The position numbers and the translations under genes were made by a program. Positions 1 through 50,850 of a stretch of 50,850 bases of DNA are shown here, one piece after another. Each line of letters opens with the position of its first letter. The first letter of the stretch is position 1. This DNA comes from a virus (Duplodnaviria > Heunggongvirae > Uroviricota > Caudoviricetes): the IMG/VR virus record IMGVR_UViG_2526164600_000002; one strand, written 5' to 3'. The notes beneath the pieces are model-generated. The model was not told the origin of the DNA and did no database searches. It was given only the letters and a program-made list of their open reading frames with translations.

Positions 1-1284
1 TTACAGACTTCTGGAAGGTTGCGCAGCTCTTACAACACGCGGTTGATCTTCCGCAGCGTCTTCCAGCGCACTTAAATCACGGTCTTTCACCTCTGGCATT
101 TTCAGCGCAGAGATTAAACCAATTACTGAATATGCCATGATCATAATGGCGATCGGATACCAGGATTCCGTCATGGTGCAGAAAATACCCGCCAGGATAG
201 GACCAAAACCGGAAGCGATAAGACCACCAATTTCTTTAGAAATAGCCATCCGGGTAAAGCGGTTTTTACAGCCGAACATTTCTGCCATGGTAATGTTTTC
301 CAGAGCAAATAATCCCAGCACCGCACAGTTATGAATCACAATCAGTGCAACCATAATGGTGCTCGGGGCATAGCTTTTATCTACAATGATAGAAAGCATT
401 GGCCATGCCAGCACAATCGCGGAGGTATTCATAATAATATACGGGATCCGGCGACCAATTTTATCGGATAACCAACCAAGGAACGGAATGGTCATAAAGC
501 CGAGAATCGAACTAATCATCAATGCATCTGTTGGAATTGCTTTGTTAAACAATAACGTCTGCACTAAATAGCCTGCAAGGAAAGTCTGAATTAACCCGGA
601 GTTACCCGCCTGACCAAAACGCAGCCCTGTTGCCAGCCAGAAGGATTTGCTCTGGAACATGCTACCAGCAGGTGCAGGTTTTGCTGTGGGTTGGTTGCTG
701 TCATTAACCTTCTCAAAGACCGGGCTTTCTTTCAGATTCATACGTAACCAGATAGCAAAGACCATCACGACAACGCTCGCCAGGAACGGTATACGCCATC
801 CCCACGCCAGCAGTTCCTCTTTACTGAGAATGAAGAACATAAAGGCCCAGATTGCCGTTGCGCTCAAGGTTCCGCAGTTAGTTCCCATAGCTACAAATGA
901 GGAGATAATTCCGCGCTTACCTTTTGGTGCATATTCCGCCAGCATCGTACCGGCACCGGAAATTTCCGCACCTGCACCCAACCCCTGAATAATACGCAGC
1001 GTCACCAGCAAGATGGGGGCAAAAACACCAATCTGTGCATAGGTCGGTAACACACCAATTAAGGTGGTACAGATCCCCATCATGGTGATGGTAATAAAGA
1101 GCACTTTTTTACGCCCTATTCTGTCGCCCATTTTGCCGAAAATAAATGCTCCGACAATACGCGCCACATAACCTGCACCGTAGGTTCCCATTGCCAAAAT
1201 TAACGCCATTGCCGTTGATGATTCAGGAAAAAATATTTCATGAAACACTAACGCTGCGCCGAGCGAATATAACTGGAAATCCAT
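1..1284 (-). CDS. ydfJ: MFS-family transporter YdfJ (427-aa ORF; window starts at its stop codon); host gene flanking the prophage
   Basis: ORF track 427 aa; hydrophobic multi-helix profile typical of MFS permeases; sequence recognised as E. coli YdfJ, the gene interrupted by Qin in K-12. Confidence 0.8.
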   Translation of the reverse strand: MDFQLYSLGAALVFHEIFFPESSTAMALILAMGTYGAGYVARIVGAFIFGKMGDRIGRKKVLFITITMMGICTTLIGVLPTYAQIGVFAPILLVTLRIIQGLGAGAEISGAGTMLAEYAPKGKRGIISSFVAMGTNCGTLSATAIWAFMFFILSKEELLAWGWRIPFLASVVVMVFAIWLRMNLKESPVFEKVNDSNQPTAKPAPAGSMFQSKSFWLATGLRFGQAGNSGLIQTFLAGYLVQTLLFNKAIPTDALMISSILGFMTIPFLGWLSDKIGRRIPYIIMNTSAIVLAWPMLSIIVDKSYAPSTIMVALIVIHNCAVLGLFALENITMAEMFGCKNRFTRMAISKEIGGLIASGFGPILAGIFCTMTESWYPIAIMIMAYSVIGLISALKMPEVKDRDLSALEDAAEDQPRVVRAAQPSRSL

Positions 1285-3283: not shown

Positions 3284-4148
3284 CTAAGCGAGGTTCTTGT
3301 TTTCAAATTGTTCCGGACTGAGGCCGCCACACCAACTGTGCCGCCGCCACCGATTGTAATCACATTCGATATAATTAAACACCGTTGCCCGCATTATTTC
3401 CCGGCTGATAAAGTGTTCTCCATGGATACATTCCACTTTCAGCGAATGAAAGAAGCTTTCCACGCAGGCATTATCGTAGCAGCAACCTTTTGCGCTCATA
3501 CTTCCACGCAGATTATGCCGCTTCAGTTGCGCCTGATAATCTGCTGAACAGTACTGGCCTCCTCGGTCCGTGTGAACGATAACGTTCCGGGGCCTCTTAC
3601 GCCGCCACAGCGCCATCTGCAGGGCATCGCAGGCCAGTTGCGCCGTCATGCGTGGCGACATTGACCAGCCAATAACGGCACGTGACCACAGGTCAATGAC
3701 CACTGCCAGATACAGCCAGCCTTCATCTGTACGTAAGTACGTGATGTCTCCTGCCCACTTCTGGTTCGGGCCACTGGCGTAAAAATCCTGCTCCAACAGA
3801 TTTTCTGACACAGGCAGGCCGTGTGCGCGGTAGCTGACCGGGCTGAACTTCCGGGAGGCCTTTGCCCTCAGTCCCTGACGGCGCAGGCTTGCCGCCACGG
3901 TTTTACGTTAAGGGGTAACCCTGAGCACGCAGTTCATCCGTCAGGCGTGGGGCACCGTAACGCTGTTTTGACCGGGTAAAAGCCGCGAGGACAACGCTGT
4001 CGCAGTGTTGGCGGAACTGCTGACGCGTGCTTATCCTTGTCCGCCGCTGACACCACGTATACCAGCCGCTGCGGGCCACCCGGAGCACGCGGCACATTGC
4101 TTTGATGCTGAACTCAGCCTGATGTTTTTCAATAAAGACATACTTCAT
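3284..4148 (-). pseudogene. insF: IS3 transposase orfB (InsF), reading frame broken near codon 80 (ORFs 3903..4148 and 3284..3898 in different frames)
   Basis: ORF track shows two adjacent ORFs that together match InsF (DDE motif region DITYL...HTDRGGQY...); break lies in short T and A runs near 3899-3905. Confidence 0.7.
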
Positions 4149-4444
4149 TTCAGGCGCTTCGCGAAGTATGTCGCGGCCTTTTGGAGGATAGCCAGCTCTT
4201 CATCCCGTTCTGCCAGCTGGCGTTTGAGACGTGCAATCTCGGTAGACATCTCCAGTTCACGTTCAGAAGACGTCTGCTGATTTTGCTGTTTACTGCGCCA
4301 GTTGTAGAGCTGTGATTCATACAGGCTGAGTTCACGGGCTGCGGCAGTAACACCGATGCGTTCAGCAAGCTTCAGGGCTTCACTGCGAAATTCAGGCGAA
4401 TGCTGTTTACGGGGTTTTTTACTGGTTGATACTGTTTTTGTCAT
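4145..4444 (-). CDS. insE: IS3 transposase orfA (InsE), HTH protein
   Basis: ORF track 4145..4453; 99-aa protein from ATG at 4444 ([20 protein letters not shown]...). Confidence 0.85.
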
Positions 4445-4566
4445 GTGAGTCACCTCTGACTGAGAGTTTACTCACTTAGCCGCGTGTCCACTATTGCTGG
4501 GTAAGATCACCCTTCCTTGCCGTAAATGGAAAGATACATCTAATTATAGAATTTATATGTTTTACC

Positions 4567-9403: not shown

Positions 9404-12400
9404 TCAGCTGATGCTGATGCCTGCGGTGGCTTTCTTCATCACCACAACCAGCAAATCGCTGATACTTGCTGTGGGATACCAGTCATTTACCAGCCATGCT
9501 GACACCGAAAACTCCAGCGTCATGTGGCCGTGACCAGCTGGCATATCAATAACACCACTGTAAATCAGCGTATTATCCAGCGCGGTACGGTTATAAATTT
9601 CAGCACCATTTTTCTTCACTATCAGGCGGCATGACGAATAAATATCGTTATTCTCCCGCTCATGTTTAGCGCCGCAGAATGCCACCGCCGGAATAACAAT
9701 TTGCCTGTCAAAAGGCTGATCGTCATAAATCCTGACGGTAATGGTCCCTGATGGCCACCGCTCCGGTGCCCGGGAGTCCCGCGGGAAAGCCTTACCCACT
9801 GTTTTGACAATATCGCCTTCAATCTGGTTGGCTGACAGTTTCCCTTTAATCTGACAGTTCTCATTTATCGTAACGTTGTTGAGCGTCCCGGAGTTCGCAT
9901 TCACACTGCCACTGATATCTGCATTTTTAGCGGTCAACTTTCCGTCCGGTGTCAGGGAAAATGCCGGAGGATTACCGCCGCTGGTAATGGTGGGAGCCGT
10001 CAGATATTTCAGGAACACTTCATTCATGAATATCTGATCACCCTGACCAACAAACATCGGTTTTGTGTTGCCATTTGCAGGATTAATCATCGCAATCCTG
10101 TCTGCCGCCAGCAGCACCTGACTCTGCATGCCGTCGGGGGTGTTCTCAATACCGGCACCGATACCCGCGATATAAAGGCGTCCGTCCTGCATCTGCTGCA
10201 GCTTCACAGCCCACATGCTGTTCAGATTATTATTTGTATCAACCTGAACCTTCTGTATCTGCTGGATCGCTGCACTCTGGTCTTCCAGTTTCTTATTGAC
10301 GGTCTGTGTGATTTCATTGCTGACATCCGTAATGGATGTCCTGATTTCAGCCAGGTCAGGCGCAAGCTGACCGTTATCAATCTGCGTCCACAGCTCCTGA
10401 GCCAGATGGGTTTTCCCTATCTCGCCTTTGAAAAAATCCAGATAGCCGGATGCGTCATCACTCGGCTGACCAACAGCCTCCACGAATGCCGATTTGCCAA
10501 CGGTGTTCACACTGCGAACGTAAAAATAATAATTATGGCCCGGCCTGATATTGATACTGGCGGCTATCCAGTACAGCGCCGTGCCAAGATAGCGTGCTGT
10601 GGTTTCAACCTGCCTGATATCCGCAATCCGCTTTTCCGAGAACCAGAACTCAAACTGTACCGTCGGATCATAAACCGCAAGATGCGGCGTGGCGGTTATC
10701 TGAAAATAGCCCGGCGTCAGCTCAATCCGCGACGGCGCTGCCGGTGCGGCAATCCGGAACGATACCGACGCCGGATCGCCCTGCTGCCCCCACGCATTTA
10801 CTGCCCGGACTGTCAGCCTGTAGTTCCCCAGAGCCAGTTGTGTGAAGCGGTAAGTGGTTTCCGTCGTCCGGGCCGTGCTGACCAGCCGCTCACTGCCGTC
10901 ATCCGCTGCCACGGTCAGGCGAAGCATGAAACTCACGCCCTTCACCACCTTCGGCGTGTCCCAGCGGGCCAGTACCTGATACTCCCCGCTGTCTGCGGTG
11001 ACTTCGGCAGTCAGGTGATGCACTGCTGGCGGCGTGACACCATTCACCGTGCCGCTCTGGTCGCCGTCAAAGTGCGCCCCGTTATCCACGATAGCTTCTT
11101 TTTCCGGTACATGCTGCACGGCGGTGATGGCATACGTGCCGTCGTCGTTCTCACGGATACTCACGCAGCGGAACAGGCGCTGGCGCAGCGTCGGCAGCTT
11201 CAGCCCCCATACGCTGTATCCGGCAACGCCGTCAGGAACACGGCTCACTTTTACCTTCACGCCGTCGGTGACGGACTGGACCTCCACGCTGACCGGATTG
11301 CCACTTCCGTCAACCAGGCTTATCAGCGTGGTACCGGAGGATGGCAGCGTGATTTCACGGTCGAGCGTCAGCGTCCGGGTCTGGCTGTTCACCGCCAGCA
11401 CGCGCCCGCCGGTGCTGATCCCCGCATAGTCATCATCGCAGATTTCAATGACATCGCCCGGCACATGGCGAAGCCCTTCCGCACCCACGCTGAAGTCCAC
11501 GGTCTGCGTTTCCAGCAGTTCTGTTTTAATCAGCCACAGCCCGGCGCGGTGCGCCTGCCCCCGGCTGGTACAGCCAAAGGCATCCATCTTCGTGACGTTA
11601 CGACCGTAACGGAGAATGGCCTGCGTATCTTCAACAAGCTCTGTCGCCGTCTCCCAGCCGTTATCCGGGTCAATCCAGTTCACCTCAACGGCATTATGAC
11701 GGTCCTTCAGGGCACTGAAGCTGTAGCGGAACGGCGCGCCATCATCCGGCATCACCACATTACTGCGGTTATAGGTCCACACCTTATCCGACGGTCGGTC
11801 CTGCACGAACGTCAGCGTCTGCCCGTTCCATACCGGCATACAGCGCATCGCCGAGCAGAAATCACTGAGAACATCCCACGCCTTGCGCTGTGTGGTCAGG
11901 TAGGCATTACAGGTGATGCGCGGCTCCGTGCCACCAAAGCCATCCGGCACCGACTGGTCGCAATTCTGGCCGATGACATACAGCGCCCATTTGTCCACAT
12001 CCGCCGCACCGAGACGCTTCCCCATGCCGTAGCGCGGATGGGTCAGCATATCCCACAGACACCAGGCCATGTTGTTGCTGTATGCTGGCTTAAACGTTCC
12101 GTCCCAGATACCGCTGTATTGCCGCGTCTGCGGGTTATAGTTCGACGGCACCTGCAGAATGCGCCCGCGAAGATGATAATTACGGCTCACCTGCTGGCTG
12201 CCGAACTGTTCCGAGTCCACCTGCACGCCGACCAGTGCCGTGTTCGGGTAGCACTGTTTCACATCGATGATTTCGGTGTATGACGACCAGAGCGTTTTGT
12301 TCTGCAGCTGGTCTGTGGTGCTGTCCGGCGTCATTCTGCGCATCCGGATATTAAACGGGCGCGGCGGCAGGTTATCCACCACCACCGAGGCCAGATACTG

Positions 12401-22269: not shown

Positions 22270-22323
22270 AAAAAAATCCCGTAAAAAAGCCGCACAGGCG
22301 GCCTTTAGTGATGAAGGGTAAGG

Positions 22324-23985: not shown

Positions 23986-27665
<3,680 letters not shown>

Positions 27666-27691
<26 letters not shown>

Positions 27692-29452: not shown

Positions 29453-29628
29453 TCAGATTAAATTAATCTTGACATCATAGCTTTCAAGACCCGTCATTTT
29501 TTCCCGTGCGGTAAACTGAATACTGGTAACTTCTTTCCCGGTCTTTTTCTTAAGTTCAATAATTTTTTTGTTATATATTCAGAAATATCTGCTTCTGCTT
29601 TTGTTTTTAAGTTTTCAATATTCATCAT
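29453..29628 (-). pseudogene. gnsB: Gns-family small protein (GnsB-like) with apparent 1-bp frameshift in an A7 run
   Basis: Manual translation: N-terminal frame MMNIENLKTKAEADISEYITKK, then second frame IIELKKKTGKEVTSIQFTAREKMTGLESYDVKINLI; junction at T7 run 29563-29569. Confidence 0.55.
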
Positions 29629-32818: not shown

Positions 32819-33180
32819 TTGATTTTATTAGTAACAAGTATTTTTATATTTTAATAATATATTTAAAGCAGATAATAAAAAACCCGCCTGAGCGGGTTTG
32901 AGATTGTGGTGCTTTTTGTGGGAGTCATCCACTTACGCACTTTGTTTTGCGATGCCAGCAGTTAGCTTCTGCTGTGAAACTATTCATGCAGCAAACCTGC
33001 ACTTCACCACAATGGTTAGCATACTTTTCCTGATTAAGATTTTGCCAAATATGCTGGCCATTGTTTCATGTATTGGACCTCCTTACTTTTTATTAAAGAG
33101 ATCCAATATTCACTACTCTGTCCGTATCTCTACTCAGGCATCAGCCTTCTTCGTTATCGTATACAGACGAGCGATGAATT

Positions 33181-33396
33181 TTAATCAGTAATGATGACAT
33201 TTACTGCTGCAGGACCTTTAGCACCACTCTCTATAGAGAAGGTAACCTTTTGACCTTCAAATAAGGTTCGATAATTATCATTCTGAATCGCAGAAAAATG
33301 CACAAACACATCTTTACTACCATCAACAGGAGAAATAAAGCCGAAACCTTTATCAGCGTTAAACCATTTTACTAAACCAGTCATTTTATTTGACAT
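33181..33396 (-). CDS. cspB: Cold shock protein CspB (71 aa)
   Basis: ORF track; CspA-family cold-shock domain. Confidence 0.9.
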
Positions 33397-33706
33397 TCTA
33401 CATTCCTTAACTTGAGCCTTTCGGCATAAATGGTTTGCATAACAGAAACGACTTCGTACTTAATTGGAGAGACTCAAAGAAGGAATAAGTGAATAACACC
33501 TGAAATGAGAACTGCTTTAGTAAACTACTTCGTATATCGTCTGTTCTTCAAACCGACGCAGTCATTAACTCATAGTTGAACATATGAAGCAATGTTTATT
33601 TTAGACATCCAGCCACCTTCAATCCTATCAAAAAAGTAGTTTTCTCCAGGAACGTGTGTATGGTGCACCAGGTTATCAGTATTAAGGAGTTTTTCTGTCC
33701 CCTAAA

Positions 33707-33907
33707 ATGACAGGAATTGTCAAAAACTTTGACGGCAAAAGCGGCAAGGGTCTTATCACCCCATCCGATGGTCGTATCGATGTCCAGCTTCATGTTTCAG
33801 CGCTCAATCTCCGCGATGCAGAAGAAATTACCACCGGATTACGCGTGGAATTTTACCGGATAAATGGTCTGCGTGGCCCTTCAGCTGCCAATGTTTACCT
33901 TTCATGA
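33707..33907 (+). CDS. cspF: Cold shock protein CspF-like (start may lie 4 codons upstream at a non-ATG codon)
   Basis: ORF track 66 aa; divergent from cspB as in Qin. Confidence 0.8.
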
Positions 33908-34196
33908 GCTATATTAAAGCTTTAATTTCAGGCCCCATCGGATCACACATGGAGAGTTTTTATGAATAACCCCGTCTGTCTTGATGACTGGTTGATTGGC
34001 TTTAAAATCTTATGCTGTACTTTGGCCGTAATAGCTCTGCTAATAATATAATAAGCAGACTCATTGTGTTTAGGGACATTGTACTGGAAGAAAACATTTT
34101 AAACATCAGGCAAATAACCAAGTCACCAGCTAAATAATAAGTTAACAGACATGAGTCCCGGGATGAGATTCAACATTACCATTGCCCCATTTAAAG

Positions 34197-34228
34197 CACA
34201 AAACCCGCTCATCAGCGGGTTTTCTACT
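34197..34228. terminator. Hairpin AAACCCGC-TCATCA-GCGGGTTT flanked by T-runs on both strands; candidate tR' (late) and cspF terminator
   Basis: Inverted repeat at 34201-34222 with T-rich tracts on each side. Confidence 0.5.
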
Positions 34229-34261
34229 TTTTCTTAACGTCGGGTATACAAAGCCCATCGT

Positions 34262-34297
34262 TGAAAAAATTTTATCCATATTTTTTGAAAAATGCAA
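34262..34297 (-). promoter_or_regulatory. Candidate late promoter PR' (minus strand -35 TTGCAT, 17-bp spacer, -10 TAAAAT) just downstream of Q
   Basis: Plus-strand ATGCAA at 34292-34297 and ATTTTA at 34269-34274; followed about 50 nt later by the hairpin terminator. Confidence 0.45.
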
Positions 34298-34328
34298 ACA
34301 TCATGTCGCCATCTTCAGCAAAAATCAT

Positions 34329-35081
34329 TTATCTCGTCACCTTCCTCAATTGCGCTTCCGCGTATGCTTCTTCCTGCCAGCACTTTGTTACCAGTTTACC
34401 AATGACGTCCGCATACCCCTTATACCACTGATAATCGGTCAGGTCTGGTACCAGCTTCTGGACATGACGTCGTGCCAGCGTGGTCGGTAAACGACTAAAC
34501 CGGTTTCCATTACAACGCCCACAAATCTTATATACCGGTACGCCATGAAACCGGGTTCTTTTTTCATCCAGAACAATCCCTTTACCCTTACACCCTCTGC
34601 ACGCTGTGCTGGCTTCGCCCTTACCATGGCAATGCTGACATAGTTCCTTCACCCATTCTTCCTTGATTACAGATTCCCCGCGTCTGTAGTGTTTCACCAC
34701 TTCGCGCAATACATTATAAAATCCCGTACCTGAACAATGCTCACAGCGAGCCTTACTTGCCGCAGACCTGGAGTAATCAGCAAAGGCAAAACTCACGAGG
34801 TAAGGAATAATCTGTAACCGGATTTCTTCACTCAATTTGTTCAATGTCGGGTTATCCAGTGCCATCGCGTAATTTAGCAGGCCTTCAATCGCAAACTGAG
34901 GGTCCTGAACACCAACTTTTGCCAGAAATAAGGCCAACCCAAGTGGTGCTTTCGACTGCACCATCCCCTGCGCTGCCATTACATCCGTAATTGTTAAACA
35001 ACCGGTGCCTGTCGCTGGAGCGTCATCGCTCAATTTTGGAGATTTTGGGGAGTAATATTTTGGTAAGGCTTCAAGGTTCAT
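34329..35081 (-). CDS. quuQ: Late-gene antiterminator Q (zinc-finger CxxC..CxxC)
   Basis: ORF 34329..35111; 250 aa from MNLEALPK; Cys-rich motifs CEHCSGTG...CQHCHGKG...CRGCKGKG...CGRC. Confidence 0.85.
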   Translation of the reverse strand: MNLEALPKYYSPKSPKLSDDAPATGTGCLTITDVMAAQGMVQSKAPLGLALFLAKVGVQDPQFAIEGLLNYAMALDNPTLNKLSEEIRLQIIPYLVSFAFADYSRSAASKARCEHCSGTGFYNVLREVVKHYRRGESVIKEEWVKELCQHCHGKGEASTACRGCKGKGIVLDEKRTRFHGVPVYKICGRCNGNRFSRLPTTLARRHVQKLVPDLTDYQWYKGYADVIGKLVTKCWQEEAYAEAQLRKVTR

Positions 35082-35094
35082 GCTCGTTCTCCAC

Positions 35095-36144
35095 TTACGC
35101 CAGTACGCCAATTGCCAGCGCGCGATCGATAAAACGAAATATCAGCTCCAGTTGGGAGCCATACTTATCTTCAAATGCCACTGTATCCGTATGCAGCTCG
35201 TTGTGATGCTTTCTGCACAAAGGCAACACAAAGAGATCATGTGCTTTTGTTCCCATTCCGCCCTGCCCGTGACCAATCAGATGATGCGGATCGTCGGCTG
35301 GCATACCGCAGCAAGCACACGGCTGTGTCTTAACCCAACGTGTGTATTTCTCCTTAACCCAGCGGCGACGTTTAGGCAGCTTCATGAAAGATTCCGGAGA
35401 CTCTGGATCAACGGTGATGCTTACCACCGTCTTTTCCTGTGGTGATTTTTGTTGCTGGTGGGCGTAAGGCAACGGTGCAAGATTTTTTGTGCGTTGTTTC
35501 AATATGCTGGTGGCGGTCTGCTCTCCCGGTACGATGTCGCTTTCGCGGTACACCGAGCAGATTTTTTCCGCTGGTAATCCCAGCGAACGACGCGATACAG
35601 CCTCAGGTAGTGCATCCACCACCTGATTGCAGACCGTCCACCAGGATAATTCAGCCAAAGATAATTCCCGCTCCTGCGTACCGCTTATTGCGTGACGGAT
35701 GACGTCAATCACCCATGCTGTCAGATTTTGTTGAGCAAGCAGCTCCAGTGATTCCGATGTCTGGTCACGCAGTTGGTTGTCGCAGTGCCAGCACAACACC
35801 ATTGCGCCGGTACCATAACGGTGAATGACTGTTTCAGTGTGATGGTAATCGCCATTAGGCCACTGGCAGGATGTAACATGACGTAATAGCCAGTCGGACA
35901 ATGCGCCAACGCCGCCAGCAGCACGAATCACCCGTTCGTTACTAAAAAACGGCAGCAATGTTTTGTCTTCCGCCAGCGGCTGGCGAACGGCAGGAACGAC
36001 TCCGGATGGCAGATTACGCATGCTTTTTGGTTCCGGTTCCACCAGCACTCGAGGATTATGAAATATCTGTATGGATTCACGGCCCGGCTTAAGGACCACC
36101 AGCCCAAGCTCAGGCACCAGAACAGGTCTAAGTAATACCCGCAC
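35095..36144 (-). CDS. ydfU: YdfU-like protein (DUF968) with C-terminal HNH-like nuclease motif
   Basis: ORF 35095..36183; GTG start at codon 14 gives 349 aa; CCGMPADDPHHLIGHG...CRKHHNELH motif. Confidence 0.7.
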   Translation of the reverse strand: MRVLLRPVLVPELGLVVLKPGRESIQIFHNPRVLVEPEPKSMRNLPSGVVPAVRQPLAEDKTLLPFFSNERVIRAAGGVGALSDWLLRHVTSCQWPNGDYHHTETVIHRYGTGAMVLCWHCDNQLRDQTSESLELLAQQNLTAWVIDVIRHAISGTQERELSLAELSWWTVCNQVVDALPEAVSRRSLGLPAEKICSVYRESDIVPGEQTATSILKQRTKNLAPLPYAHQQQKSPQEKTVVSITVDPESPESFMKLPKRRRWVKEKYTRWVKTQPCACCGMPADDPHHLIGHGQGGMGTKAHDLFVLPLCRKHHNELHTDTVAFEDKYGSQLELIFRFIDRALAIGVLA

Positions 36145-38614: not shown

Positions 38615-39013
38615 CGCCATCAGCCTTTTCTTTAAAGACATATTATCTTTGTATCATTTCTGATAGTTAACATTACAAGATATAAGTAATGGACGCACTC
38701 CCAATTAGTCTATTTAAATCGCCACGAGTTTAACTGACAACCCATGATCAATTATGAATTGCAACTATTTCTGTAGTCACTTTTGTGGGGACAGTCCACA
38801 AAACTGCCAACTTCCGCTTCTTGCTCTTAGCGGACATTAGCATAGGCTATTTACCATAACGCCTCATTACGCGCACCGCCCAGACTGACTCAGCGCGTTT
38901 CTGGCATATCCCCGGTAAAACAAGTAACAAACCACCCGAAAATGAACACCAGAAACGCGACTTAAGAATCTACCCTATGAATGGATATGCACTCAACCGA
39001 ATCGATCTTGGTT

Positions 39014-40354
39014 TCAATCTTTTTTATCGGGATCAGGCTTCTTTTTAGGTAACTTCGGGGGCTTAACTTGCTGATGACTTTGCGTTCGGCGCGTAAGCCA
39101 GGGATGGTCAGCTTTAGGTTTAACATAGTATTTTGAGCGTAAATCAATACGGGCATTATCCACTCGTTCATGGACACTCTTTTCATCATCCAGTGGTATA
39201 GGCTCCGGGCCATCAACATACTTTTCCCAGCCCAGCGCTTTCCCGTCATACAGAACGTTAATTTCACCGTCAAAGTTCTCGCATACAGTAACAACCGAAT
39301 GCCTAAGTCGATATCCCCGGCTCTCACTGCGTACCTGAAACGCACTGCTTTTGTACTGGAAAGTGAGATTTTTAGACAGAACGCGCTTCGCCTGTAGGCT
39401 GAAGATATAACCCAGTTCCTCTTCAGAATGGTGCACATCAAGATGAGCATTATCAGTAGTACGAGGCGACGTAGCGAACCGGTTGTTATAGGCTTCAATA
39501 AAGGTCGGCAACCATGCATTTGCTGTTTCAATATCACTGATATTCTGAAGCCGCATTTCTTTGACCAGCCTGTCCTGTAGTGTCTGATTGGCGCGCTCTA
39601 CCCGCCCTTTTGCCTGCGGGCTGTTGGCATGGATTGGCTCGATGCCCAGTGTCTTTATCGCACGAGTGAACTGGGTCAGCTCACCTTCCCGCTCTGGGTT
39701 ATTTACCCTGAATATACTGTGTCTATCAGAGTAGAGAGCGAGCGGTACGCCACGATCATTAAGGTAACCCCGGAGGGTTTCCATGTAAGCCCGGGTTGTT
39801 TCAGCAGGCACAAAACGCAACGCCATCAACGCACTGGTGGCATCATCAATGAAAACGATCAGTGTACATCTGGGGCCTCGATTTTCAAACCAGTCATGAG
39901 GTGAGCCATCAATCTGGATCAGTTCACCGTAAGATGGTCGTCGCATGCGGCGTTGATATATACGGGCAATTTTACGACGGCGTTCACGCCATAACCCCTC
40001 TTCTATCATCCACTTTCTGAGAGTTTCAACGGATAAAGATAAACCGTGTATCTCGCGCAATTTTTCGCACGCAAACGTAGGTCCAAAATCAGCGTAACGG
40101 CCTTTGAGGAGTGAAATTACTGTTGCTCTGAATTCAGTAGAAAAGGAATTATTAGGACGCTTTCCACGTCGGTGGGAAACCAGACCAGAAGGCCCTTCAT
40201 TTCTATACCGTTGCACCAGACGTTTAACCTGCCGAATAGAAATGCCAATGCGTGCCGCAGCTTGTTCCTGAGTAATATGTCGATTAATTGACTCCTGAAT
40301 AATCTGAAGTCGGTGGAGTTCCTTATGACTCATCGTAACAGTCTCTTTGATCAT
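39014..40354 (-). CDS. DDE (integrase-core) transposase, IS481-like family (tentative), N-terminal HTH
   Basis: ORF track 446 aa; HTH region ARIGISIRQVKRLVQRYRNEG; DDE-type motifs IQIDGS...YSDRHSIF...PQAKGRVERANQTL. Confidence 0.8.
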   Translation of the reverse strand: MIKETVTMSHKELHRLQIIQESINRHITQEQAAARIGISIRQVKRLVQRYRNEGPSGLVSHRRGKRPNNSFSTEFRATVISLLKGRYADFGPTFACEKLREIHGLSLSVETLRKWMIEEGLWRERRRKIARIYQRRMRRPSYGELIQIDGSPHDWFENRGPRCTLIVFIDDATSALMALRFVPAETTRAYMETLRGYLNDRGVPLALYSDRHSIFRVNNPEREGELTQFTRAIKTLGIEPIHANSPQAKGRVERANQTLQDRLVKEMRLQNISDIETANAWLPTFIEAYNNRFATSPRTTDNAHLDVHHSEEELGYIFSLQAKRVLSKNLTFQYKSSAFQVRSESRGYRLRHSVVTVCENFDGEINVLYDGKALGWEKYVDGPEPIPLDDEKSVHERVDNARIDLRSKYYVKPKADHPWLTRRTQSHQQVKPPKLPKKKPDPDKKD

Positions 40355-40729
40355 GAAAAATCCCCCAGAGAATTGTCTGGGGACATTTTAGAATGGTTCA
40401 AAGGGGACATTACAGCTTGGTGTTAACAATAGCCTGCTTCTCCGTGCCTTTCGGCACGTAAGAGGCTAACCTACATGTGTCTAGCATGAAATTGGCCTCA
40501 GATTAATGTTAAGCGTCTTGCAGGACGCGTAATGTTAACTGGGGCTTTTCTCTATCTGCCGTTGGTGTCCATGCCCGAGGCAGATAGCCTCAAGCACCCG
40601 CAGTCATTCTACTTAACTAAGATTTCCCCGCAAACCGTTTTTGTCCAGCACAGTAAATATCCAACTAAACCAATGGAGTTCGCTGTATTTACCGCCAGTA
40701 TTCAATGCACATGACCGCCATGAACACCC

Positions 40730-40867
40730 CTAAAAAAGGGCATTTATATATCCAAATATTAATATCAAAACATCAACTTTTTCCATATACCTTGCTGTGA
40801 AGATGATGGGCATACATGATGCGAACAACCAGAACGCAACAAACAAAAACTGCAATGCGTTTTTCAT
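40730..40867 (-). CDS. Candidate small hydrophobic protein (about 45 aa) with strong Shine-Dalgarno AGGAGG
   Basis: Manual translation MKNALQFLFVAFWLFASCMPIIFTARYMEKVDVLILIFGYINALF; below ORF-track cutoff. Confidence 0.3.
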   Translation of the reverse strand: MKNALQFLFVAFWLFASCMPIIFTARYMEKVDVLILIFGYINALF

Positions 40868-42018
40868 TATTCCTCCTACAATCAATGTGCAATTACATTT
40901 AAACACACCTCAATTTGGCCGGACATATAAATATCTAAACCAGAAAAAATCACTTACATAGCGTTACAAACTCTTTAGTCTAAAGGTTCATCGTAAAACA
41001 TTCCCCATACTTATCAGTCCGTTCCGCGCCAGGTAGCTCATTGCCTTATCTGGCAACCTGTAATCAGGTTTCCGCTTTTTCAGTTGGCTGGTCGTTTAAC
41101 CGACATAGTTAATCCATTAATCTAGTTGCCGGATGTTGGTGGATTTTCGCGTTTTAGTTGTTCATAAAAGTGCACAGCTTTAACCAGTTCTTCTGATGTA
41201 ACCGGGACTGGTGAGGCAGTGAATAAGGCCTGAATTTGATAGTTCGGCCTGTCGTTACAATCCTCTTTTTTCGGTACATATTTCCAGTCACCAGACCACT
41301 ACTTCCCCTGAAAGTCCGTAACGCTTTTTTCACGTAGCGATATCGCCATGCCACTGGTTTTGCTTGCCCCGCCGTTTCATGCCCTTCCTGATAATTAATC
41401 TCGCTCATTCATCGCCCCACTCATCACAATATGCTTCGACCGGAGTTTTTCCCGCTTCATAGTCATCACGTTAGGATTCGACATCAGCAGCACTTCCACC
41501 GCGTAATTCACCATAGTCCATTAATAGTTCATCCCGCTCTTCAAAACTGATGTTATATTTAGCTGAACAAAAATCAGCCACTTTGTTCTTCCTCATCGTC
41601 TTTTATTTCGTGGTATGAGTAATTGCAGTAGTTAAAGAAAATTTCTTATGCTCCGTCATGAATTTCATCAGGTGTTGCGTCATCGTCCACTTCGAATACA
41701 TCCTCAAAATCTCCACCAGCTATTTCCGTTTCAATAATAATTTTGAACTTTCGCATTTCACTACCGCCCTTTCGGGCGGCCTCCTGATGTTCTGAGGGTG
41801 CAGAAATCCATCCGGTTAAGGATTAAGTTTTATTTACAGAACTGAATTTAATTATTCAGATATACGTATCTGTAACCTTACGAATCTACTCACTGGATGC
41901 CTCTTTCATAAAAATAATCCAGTGGGTTTTATCGTTTTTTCCCTGTTCGTTGACAGATAACAGGCTTTCTATCTGTCAGTGCCAGAATCTGGCTTACCGG
42001 TATTTGCGTTTCATTCCA

Positions 42019-42375
42019 TTAAAAAATCAGAACGCCGTGCGGCCTCAACACCCGAAAAGCTTCTTTAAATCTCTGTCGCAAATCATCACGCCAGGCATCT
42101 TTATTCAGCCGTCCATATTTCTTTCCCATCCAGGCGTTATCACCAACACGCTCAAGATGCGGAGGGTCTAATACAACCATCGAAAAAGATGCGTCTGCAA
42201 ATGATAATGCACGAAAATCTGCGATAATGTCAGGGCTGATAATCAAGCGTCTCCCATTGCGTAATGTGTATCCTTCTTTTCTGATATCGCTGAATATCGC
42301 CCGTTTGTCAGACTTATCGAACCAGAACATGCGGCTGCCACAGCACATATCAAGAATGGTTGCCGGTGCACTCAC
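42019..42375 (-). CDS. Putative SAM-dependent methyltransferase fragment (motif I-like LDMCCGS and motif IV-like DPPH), probably truncated
   Basis: ORF track 118 aa; motifs read from translation; too short for a complete methyltransferase. Confidence 0.45.
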   Translation of the reverse strand: MSAPATILDMCCGSRMFWFDKSDKRAIFSDIRKEGYTLRNGRRLIISPDIIADFRALSFADASFSMVVLDPPHLERVGDNAWMGKKYGRLNKDAWRDDLRQRFKEAFRVLRPHGVLIF

Positions 42376-42794
42376 TGCGCCACGTCCTGAAAATTACCCT
42401 GATAGAAAGCCAGTATGCGCTGCATAACTTCGCTCTTCCGGCACTCGCGACAGATTATGTTTAGGCGACTGTCGTAGCGACGTATTTCTCCGTCAGGTGA
42501 TGACCAGATAAGGTCCGGATCAACCATAGCAGGTTTCTTCACCTTTGCCCTCGAGAGTTTTTTGCGGGCGTTTTGCCAGTCCTTACGCGCCTGTTCAGAG
42601 GGGAATAACCCGTAGCCGGAGTTGTATACATCGCCACTGGCTACCAGCTCTCTGGCAAGAACGCTCATCAGATATCTAGTCGCACCTGTTTTAGCTTCCA
42701 GTTGCCGTAACGTCTCACGGCCGCTCTGGCGCACGAGTTCCACCACCTGCCATTTAATTTTTTCCCGCTCTTCTTGTGTAAAAACTTTTGCCAC
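42372..42794 (-). CDS. Hypothetical protein, 140 aa, downstream of replication gene
   Basis: ORF track; stop overlaps the start of the methyltransferase-like ORF. Confidence 0.45.
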   Translation of the reverse strand: MAKVFTQEEREKIKWQVVELVRQSGRETLRQLEAKTGATRYLMSVLARELVASGDVYNSGYGLFPSEQARKDWQNARKKLSRAKVKKPAMVDPDLIWSSPDGEIRRYDSRLNIICRECRKSEVMQRILAFYQGNFQDVAQ

Positions 42795-49284: not shown

Positions 49285-49536
49285 ATGAGCGAAGTAATCA
49301 TGATTGTCTCTCCCGGCAAATGGGTATCCGAAGAGCAGTTAATTGCGCTGAAAGGAATAAAAAAAGGTACGTTAAAAAAGGCCCGGGAAAAATCGTTTAT
49401 GGAAGGAAGGGAATATAAGCATGTCGCTCATGACGGTATGCCATGGGATAACAGTCCATGCTTTTACAACCTGGAAGAAATTGATCGCTGGATTGAGCGC
49501 CAGGCATCAGCGAGACCAAGACGTCATCTTACTTGA
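49285..49536 (+). CDS. Putative excisionase-like small protein (Xis position, immediately upstream of int)
   Basis: ORF track 83 aa; position only. Confidence 0.45.
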   Translation: MSEVIMIVSPGKWVSEEQLIALKGIKKGTLKKAREKSFMEGREYKHVAHDGMPWDNSPCFYNLEEIDRWIERQASARPRRHLT

Positions 49537-49570
49537 CTAAAAGTCACACTAACTAATGAGAGAAGTTGAA

Positions 49571-50850
49571 ATGAAATATCCGACAGGCGTGGAAAACCAT
49601 GGAGGGAAATTACGTATCTGGTTTGTTTATAAAGACGTAAGAGTCAGGGAAAATCTGGGGGTTCCTGACACAGCAAAAACAGGCGCGTTGCAGGTGAACT
49701 ACGCTCCTCTGTTTGTTACGCAATAAAAACTGGTGTTTTCGACTATGCAAAACAGTTTCCCTCCTCACGCAATCTGGAAAAATTTGGTGAGGCCCGACAA
49801 GATTTAACCATAAAAGAACTGGCTGAAAAATTTCTGGCACTGAAAGAAACTGAAGTCGCCAAAACATCACTCAACACATACCGTGCCGTCATCAAAAATA
49901 TCCTGAGCATAATCGGTGAAAAAAATCTTGCCTCATCGATTAATAAAGAAAAATTACTGGAGGTTCGTAAAGAGTTACTGACTGGATACCAGATCCCCAA
50001 AAGTAACTATATTGTTACACAACCAGGGAGATCGGCTGTAACTGTAAATAATTACATGACAAATCTTAACGCCGTGTTCCAGTTTGGTGTTGATAACGGT
50101 TACCTGGCAGATAATCCGTTTAAGGGGATCTCGCCATTAAAGGAATCAAGAACCATTCCGGATCCTCTTTCGCGGGAAGAATTTATCCGTCTTATCGATG
50201 CGTGCAGAAATCAGCAAGCAAAAAATTTATGGTGTGTTTCTGTTTATACTGGAGTTCGCCCTGGTGAGCTGTGTGCACTTGGATGGGAGGACATAGATCT
50301 GAAAAATGGAACAATGATGATCAGGAGAAATTTAGCAAAAGACCGTTTCACGGTACCAAAAACACAGGCGGGAACCAATCGGGTCATTCATCTTATTAAG
50401 CCAGCAATCGACGCTCTCCGGAGTCAGATGACATTAACGAGACTGAGCAAAGAGCATATCATTGATGTTCACCTCAGAGAGTATGGCAGAACAGAAAAAC
50501 AAAAATGCACCTTTGTTTTTCAACCTGAAGTGTCAGCGAGAGTAAAAAATTATGGTGACCATTTTACCGTTGACTCAATAAGGCAGATGTGGGACGCAGC
50601 GATAAAACGTGCCGGACTCCGCCATCGAAAATCATATCAGTCGAGACATACTTATGCCTGCTGGTCGCTGACAGCTGGTGCTAACCCGGCATTTATAGCA
50701 AACCAGATGGGCCATGCAGATGCGCAAATGGTATTTCAGGTATACGGAAAATGGATGTCTGAAAACAATAATGCACAGGTAGCTTTGTTAAATACACAGT
50801 TAAGCGAGTTTGCCCCAACCATGCCCCATAACGAAGCAATGAAAAATTAA
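49571..50850 (+). pseudogene. intQ: Tyrosine integrase (IntQ-like) with apparent 1-bp frameshift after codon 35; remainder open in the shifted frame from about 49672 to the stop at the window end
   Basis: N-terminal frame MKYPTGVENHGGKLRIWF...GVPDTAK then stop at 49724; shifted frame reads NRRVAGELRSSVCYAIKTGVFDYAKQFP... into ORF 50056..50850 with catalytic R...HxxR...Y region; junction at A5 run 49675-49679. Confidence 0.8.

Follow-up and report, generated by a model that had tools for sequence, protein, structure and literature searches.

A one-base shortfall that splits the integrase gene of a Qin-type prophage in the Escherichia coli DEC14A draft genome is probably a homopolymer under-call

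Results

A Qin-type prophage in ydfJ

The window, by which we mean the whole stretch of DNA that was analysed (50,850 nucleotides; IMG/VR record IMGVR_UViG_2526164600_000002), is, as judged from its gene content and its ends, an integrated Qin-type lambdoid prophage in ydfJ and not a packaged phage genome. Its gene set is of the Qin type, with lambda-like head and tail genes, relBE, hokD, flxA, and dicB/dicC, and further Qin-type genes are the csp genes, ydfU, gnsB, and a gene for a RecE-like exonuclease. Two stretches of contig AIHK01000014.1 of the E. coli DEC14A draft (GCA_000250415.2) are 100.000% identical to the window, and the exact 51-aa integrase fragment and the exact 655-aa frameshifted terminase described below are both recorded from DEC14A. 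The features at the two ends of the window are as follows.

1–1284, minus strand: host gene ydfJ (MFS transporter), its N-terminus lost to the prophage insertion; chromosomal edge of the window (PGAP annotation in relatives S51, N1286, and others)
1276–1286, no strand assigned: left 11-bp att core GAAATCCATAA, overlapping the ATG of the truncated ydfJ (DEC14A junctions compared with attP of PhiR42_1)
49285–49536, plus strand: excisionase gene xis (DUF1233), intact and directly upstream of int (PF06806, E=1.6e-31)
49571–49726, plus strand: int as written, 5' portion with 51 codons and TAA (frame reading, Pfam)
49675–49679, plus strand: A5 run, one A short compared with all close relatives, which have A6 (alignment)
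49678–50850, plus strand: rest of int in the -1 frame, with core-binding and catalytic domains and the catalytic motifs present (frame reading, PF00589)

The right att core, also GAAATCCATAA, lies 38–48 nt past the int stop, which is the end of the window (positions 11318–11328 of locus L019); the core matches attP of phage PhiR42_1. Both prophage junctions are intact in DEC14A.

By position and identity, the window int is the orthologue of intQ (b1579) of K-12 MG1655, a pseudogene of the cryptic prophage Qin that occupies the same position, adjoining ynfP-rspB-rspA, and is 99.9% identical to window positions 49691–50850 without gaps. K-12 Qin likewise carries dicB/dicC, relBE, hokD, flxA, csp genes, ydfU, and gnsB, and ydfJ is disrupted there too. 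By contrast, K-12 Qin is a 20-kb remnant whose intQ lacks the 5' end, including the A run, and lies beside an IS2 remnant, whereas the window prophage, at about 49.6 kb, has its full length, and its int is one base away from intact alleles.

The integrase reading frame as deposited

The frame that opens at ATG 49571 runs for 51 codons to TAA at 49724–49726 and encodes MKYPTGVENHGGKLRIWFVYKDVRVRENLGVPDTAKTGALQVNYAPLFVTQ followed by the stop; the version in the list of open reading frames begins at an earlier ATG, at 49556, and has 56 aa. In the -1 frame, reading continues from 49669 as far as the stop at 50848–50850 (393 codons); this frame encodes ...KNRRVAGELRSSVCYAIKTGVFDYAKQFP... and runs through the catalytic domain. 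The initial annotation, in which an N-terminal frame stopped at 49724 and a shifted frame continued uninterrupted to 50848–50850, thus described both frames correctly. Re-reading of the sequence placed the A5 of the CAAAAAC run at 49675–49679 on the plus strand, and the window differs from its relatives by exactly one A at this run, which is where the junction had been put. Insertion of one A into the run yields a single integrase of 426 aa, against the previous estimate of about 425 aa. Within 49678–50850, reading of the -1 frame and its alignment with the integrase of structure 6emy revealed no further stop or frameshift and no second lesion. The frame break is genuinely present in the deposited sequence and does not come from a chance reading of it.

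As written, codons 1–36 of the 5' part are authentic Int and cover half of the Arm DNA-binding domain, and codons 37–51 are out of frame. The next in-frame start past the break is ATG 50056 (codon ≈163), with a product of 264 aa. In this form, the products of int would be a stub of 51 aa and, at most, a catalytic fragment that lacks the DNA-targeting domains.

Domains of the repaired integrase

In the repaired protein, the Arm DNA-binding domain PF12167 matches residues 4–67 (Pfam). In the deposited sequence this domain is cut, with residues 4–36 covering profile positions 1–34 of 65 and split from the catalytic part; the Arm domain and the remainder stand in one polypeptide only after repair. 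The Phage_integrase domain PF00589 matches residues 201–392 (E=3.9e-18; 66.2 bits, cut-off 27.1), all of which belong to the window's -1 frame. The catalytic motifs R (TGVRPGEL), K (PKTQAG), HxxR (SRHTYA), H (MGHADA), and Y (QVYGKW) were identified by alignment with the Int of 6emy. On this domain content int encodes a tyrosine recombinase that carries an arm-binding domain at its N-terminus, and the presence of both the Arm and the Phage_integrase domains in the repaired protein upholds its earlier assignment to the lambdoid type.

The order of arm-binding, core-binding, and catalytic domains is that of tyrosine recombinases of the lambda Int type, of which the "Int protein" of 6emy is a solved relative, and the R, K, HxxR, H, and Y motifs align. 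The likeness to this class extends to the pairing with an excisionase and to the flanking att cores. Compared with solved tyrosine recombinases, the arm domain of the window protein is of the PF12167 (DUF3596) type, and similarity to the solved structures (6emy) is low (E=4e-9) and confined to the catalytic half. The genomic setting, with the adjoining xis (counterparts of which are annotated as excisionase in relatives), the prophage end, and the direct-repeat att cores, fits a phage integrase. An intact Int, together with the adjoining Xis, would recombine the two 11-bp cores at the prophage ends.

The A run in phages and in other E. coli genomes

The alignment with intact integrases that the initial annotation had proposed as a check gave A6 in four phages and in five near-identical prophages. 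The phages are Escherichia phages PhiR42_1, HannyBb, Tritos, and mEp460_ev081, in which xis-int is 99.0–99.9% identical to the window at the nucleotide level. The repaired 426-aa protein is found on at least 1000 public contigs and appears to be the WP_000876958.1 allele (426 aa), which is carried by N1286, JNEC-KY180, and MEI005 and has no int substitutions compared with the window. Unlike the window, the phage integrases and WP_000876958.1 are encoded with A6 in a single uninterrupted frame.

The A5 form is rare. This stretch is present in 2,644 complete E. coli genomes. An exact A5 43-mer occurs in 4 of them, and five of the genomes without it were retrieved and verified as A6. The four A5 genomes (E14, E15, E16, and E32) are from chicken isolates that belong to a single clone and stem from one laboratory, and PGAP labels the gene "frameshifted" in them; in the alignment from exonuclease to int, their allele and the window share only 94.7% identity. 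In IMG/VR, the A5 40-mer is on no contig and the A6 form is on at least 120, and no A5 form was found in JGI metagenome contigs. The closest chromosomal relatives, MEI005, MEI2A-0323, and ISHS7, all have A6. The 8,876-nt chromosomal flank of DEC14A is matched perfectly by MEI005, MEI2A-0323, and YZ3E2001, and those checked at the run are A6. The identity of the MEI005 flank implies that almost no point mutation separates MEI005 and DEC14A.

Changes private to the window

We compared the window with the independently sequenced relatives S51, N1286, JNEC-KY180, MEI005, and TUM1880, which differ from it by 4–15 substitutions each over ≈50 kb. All five oppose the window at nine positions, which comprise eight one-base deletions, one substitution, and no insertion. 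The sole private substitution is at 3563, in IS3. At all eight deletion sites the run is longer in all five relatives, and PhiR42_1 agrees with them at all six of the sites that it covers. The deletions, called against the five relatives, are listed below.

49675, plus strand: int run, A6 to A5
25967–25972, no strand assigned: terminase gene A (25724–27691, minus strand), T7 to T6
29563–29569, no strand assigned: gnsB run, T8 to T7, 43-aa product
22283–22288, no strand assigned: A7 to A6, intergenic, between capsid genes E and D
32841–32845, no strand assigned: T6 to T5, intergenic
40732–40737, no strand assigned: A7 to A6, intergenic
3901–3911, no strand assigned: IS3 orfB, two one-base deletions, T5 to T4 at 3901–3904 and A3 to A2 at 3910–3911

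The deletion in gene A gives a product of 655 aa compared with 641 aa, in which the last ≈68 aa are replaced out of frame. The initial annotation had likened the break in gene A to that in int, and the two are indeed the same kind of change (T6 compared with T7 at 25967–25972). Its caution as to whether either break is real was well placed, given that both are among the eight private one-base deletions.

In our summary count, six of the eight deletions are in A/T runs, and the proportion of A/T runs shortened rose with their length: 1 of 4 8-mers (25%), 3 of 13 7-mers (23%), 2 of 67 6-mers (3%), 1 of 162 5-mers (0.6%), and 0 of 391 4-mers. The private changes of the relatives themselves served as the baseline for the spectrum; the window has 8 indels and 1 substitution, compared with 2 indels and 35 substitutions in the five relatives (Fisher p=1.5e-6). 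All eight window indels are deletions (p=0.008), and they strike essential phage genes (A and int) and intergenic DNA alike.

The IS3 copy (≈3284–4453) is flanked by pinQ and by the gene for tail fibre assembly, and its two orfB deletions, 9 nt apart, lead to a truncated 81-aa product. The same 81-aa OrfB product is on 14 contigs, including the DEC draft contig AIFB01000033.1 and the complete genome CP007391. A 204-aa IS3 OrfB product was considered as a marker for the left flank of DEC14A and rejected, as it is a routine gene call (305 blocks) and not diagnostic; the 81-aa product led to that flank in its place.

At ≈39000–42400, the annotations of all five relatives give a frameshift or an internal stop for three genes, namely those for a truncated ISEsa1 transposase, a methyltransferase, and a hypothetical protein, and these genes carry no window-private change in the comparison of loci L008–L012. 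Read from this comparison, the lesions are real, shared, older decay, unlike the window-private deletions. In TUM1880 (L012), an IS66-family element adjoins a truncated int, and a C run is the site of a frameshift in the tape-measure gene (418–1374 and 33086–35664); these lesions show this prophage damaged in independent ways.

Other public sequences with the same broken products

The 51-aa Int fragment was found on ten listed contigs, seven of which (L020–L022 and L025–L028) are deletion-prone, with 2–14 bases missing and 0–1 extra in their chromosomal flanks, where rspB, rspA, and ynfE are split. In these seven contigs A5 is only one of many under-calls, and noisy assemblies thus repeatedly under-call the int A6 run. 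The independent contigs L023 and L024 look clean and are also A5, and a variant of the Int fragment in PCN061 is annotated as defective Qin integrase.

Contig L024 (ERR3653866) shows 3 substitutions compared with DEC14A in 10.5 kb, 2 of them within the 8.9-kb flank. At two of these three positions, window 49543 and flank +1379, DEC14A has a derived base in common with MEI005 and the other A6 genomes, and L024 has the ancestral base, which is that of every distant relative. The ancestral bases of L024 at these two sites imply that A5 arose in L024 and in DEC14A as independent events. Joint inheritance of A5 by DEC14A and L024 was thus ruled out: MEI005, which has A6, is identical to DEC14A in the flank, and L024 falls outside the DEC14A and MEI005 group.

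The exact 655-aa terminase is on six other contigs, in different phage backgrounds that have A7, and not A6, at 22283; its occurrence there implies that real deletions in these runs do occur. The 43-aa gnsB product (T7) is on at least 1000 public contigs, and by this count the T run of gnsB, a toxin-family gene, seems to vary naturally. The broken terminase and Int products of other contigs were considered as proof that the breaks in the window are real and were rejected as such, since the terminase contigs differ in background and 7 of the 10 Int contigs are deletion-prone. Rare recurrence at homopolymers is expected whether the deletions are artefacts or real.

Discussion

A probable homopolymer under-call in the DEC14A draft

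The comparison with the five relatives leads us to assign a probability of roughly 0.8 to the reading that the A5 stems from an old draft assembly in which a homopolymer was under-called; the A5 would then be absent from the organism and would not be a real biological feature. The A6 run would have been recorded as A5 during sequencing or assembly of the DEC14A draft, as one of eight one-base under-calls in the 50-kb stretch. The membership of both int and gene A in a set of eight private deletions that all go in one direction points to an artefact over biology. To our knowledge, no natural mutation spectrum is of this kind, not even that of mismatch-repair-deficient E. coli in mutation-accumulation work. 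Errors in pyrosequencing and long-read drafts are likewise one-base changes in mononucleotide runs, dependent on run length, in one direction, and blind to gene function.

Pyrosequencing by 454 is known for errors in homopolymer length. We infer both the technical cause and the use of this platform for DEC14A; in a sister project, alike in laboratory, centre, and year, 454 Titanium reads were assembled with Celera (PMC3491183).

Several observations were counted against this reading: the clean A5 contigs L023 and L024, the common short form of gnsB, the frameshifted terminase in other contigs, and the indel-free chromosomal flank. The last of these departs from what pyrosequencing error would predict. 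The 16.3 kb of flanking DEC14A chromosome has no indel, compared with 2.46 predicted from the per-run rates (P(0)=0.085), a comparison of low power, as is that for a single flank (no indels, P(0)=0.28). We rejected the clean flank as a case against error because it carries too little power, whether one flank or both are taken. The deletions may be somewhat concentrated in the prophage, and it is mainly the mild tension with the indel-free 16.3 kb that keeps our confidence in an under-call from rising above 0.8.

A possible recent deletion in the organism

It is possible, and in our estimate unlikely, that int has been inactivated by a real and very recent one-base deletion through replication slippage in the A6 run. 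Loss of int at this exact locus is known, both from the intQ pseudogene beside rspB in K-12 and from TUM1880, where int is cut by an IS; A5 is also present in the E14/E15/E16/E32 clone, whose gene PGAP calls "frameshifted", and in L023 and L024, which are clean contigs, and the variant in PCN061 is annotated as a defective integrase. The absence of indels from 16.3 kb of DEC14A chromosome is likewise in keeping with a real event. However, a real deletion would have to be accompanied by the other private homopolymer deletions, eight in all alongside one substitution, which is the opposite of the spectrum in the relatives. Moreover, the closest chromosomal relatives (MEI005, MEI2A-0323, and ISHS7) have A6, and the derived bases at 49543 and flank +1379 place the A5 of L024 outside any inheritance in common with DEC14A. 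A genuine pseudogene would be recognized by a lesion common to its closest relatives or by further lesions; MEI005 has A6, and int has neither a second lesion nor any secondary decay. The split integrase is ordinary under this reading and under that of an under-call alike.

The scatter of A5 among lineages could also mean that the A6 run is a natural mutational hot spot, which has independently lost one A in the lineages of DEC14A, L023, L024, the E14 clone, and PCN061; we consider this improbable. If it were true, an otherwise intact prophage would be fixed in the chromosome each time, as a simple first step of prophage domestication, and the burst of other A/T-run deletions in DEC14A would need explaining.

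Switching and recoding as improbable readings

The same independent origins of A5 in several backgrounds (DEC14A, L023, L024, and the 94.7% identical allele of the E14 clone) are what a reversible A6/A5 switch, turning excision of Qin-type prophages off and on, would produce. Such a switch is very improbable in view of the rarity of A5, which is confined to 4 of 2,644 complete genomes (one clone) and is found on 0 IMG/VR contigs compared with at least 120 for A6 and in no JGI metagenome contig, and most A5 contigs are error-ridden. The tract, at six bases, is also short for a contingency tract.

We regard recoding as the least credible reading; under it, slippage of tRNA-Lys by -1 on A_AAA, or slippage during transcription, would let the A5 template yield full-length Int. 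Although a -1 shift inside the run recreates the wild-type ...TAKNRR..., the zero frame reads GCA AAA ACA and contains no X_XXY_YYZ slippery heptamer at the run, so that only a single-tRNA slip is available. No stable structure lies downstream: the MFE is -18.8, compared with -24.1 on average for shuffled sequences (z=+1.57), and of 200 shuffles 195 are no less stable. A5 is also too short for efficient slippage by RNA polymerase. The relatives encode Int in one frame with A6, and neither a two-frame arrangement nor a recoding signal is conserved among them. We rejected programmed frameshifting at int for want of a heptamer, a structure, and conservation.

Implications for the DEC14A prophage

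If the deletion were real, the prophage could no longer excise and would be fixed in the chromosome like the cryptic Qin of K-12, and DEC14A would add one more case to a well-known process in which loss of the integrase fixes a Qin-type prophage. If, as we favour, the A5 is an under-call, the DEC14A draft (AIHK01) under-calls A/T runs, and the apparent pseudogenes int, terminase A, gnsB, and IS3 orfB should not be taken as signs that the prophage is decaying. The prophage would then probably be intact and inducible, like its relative PhiR42_1.
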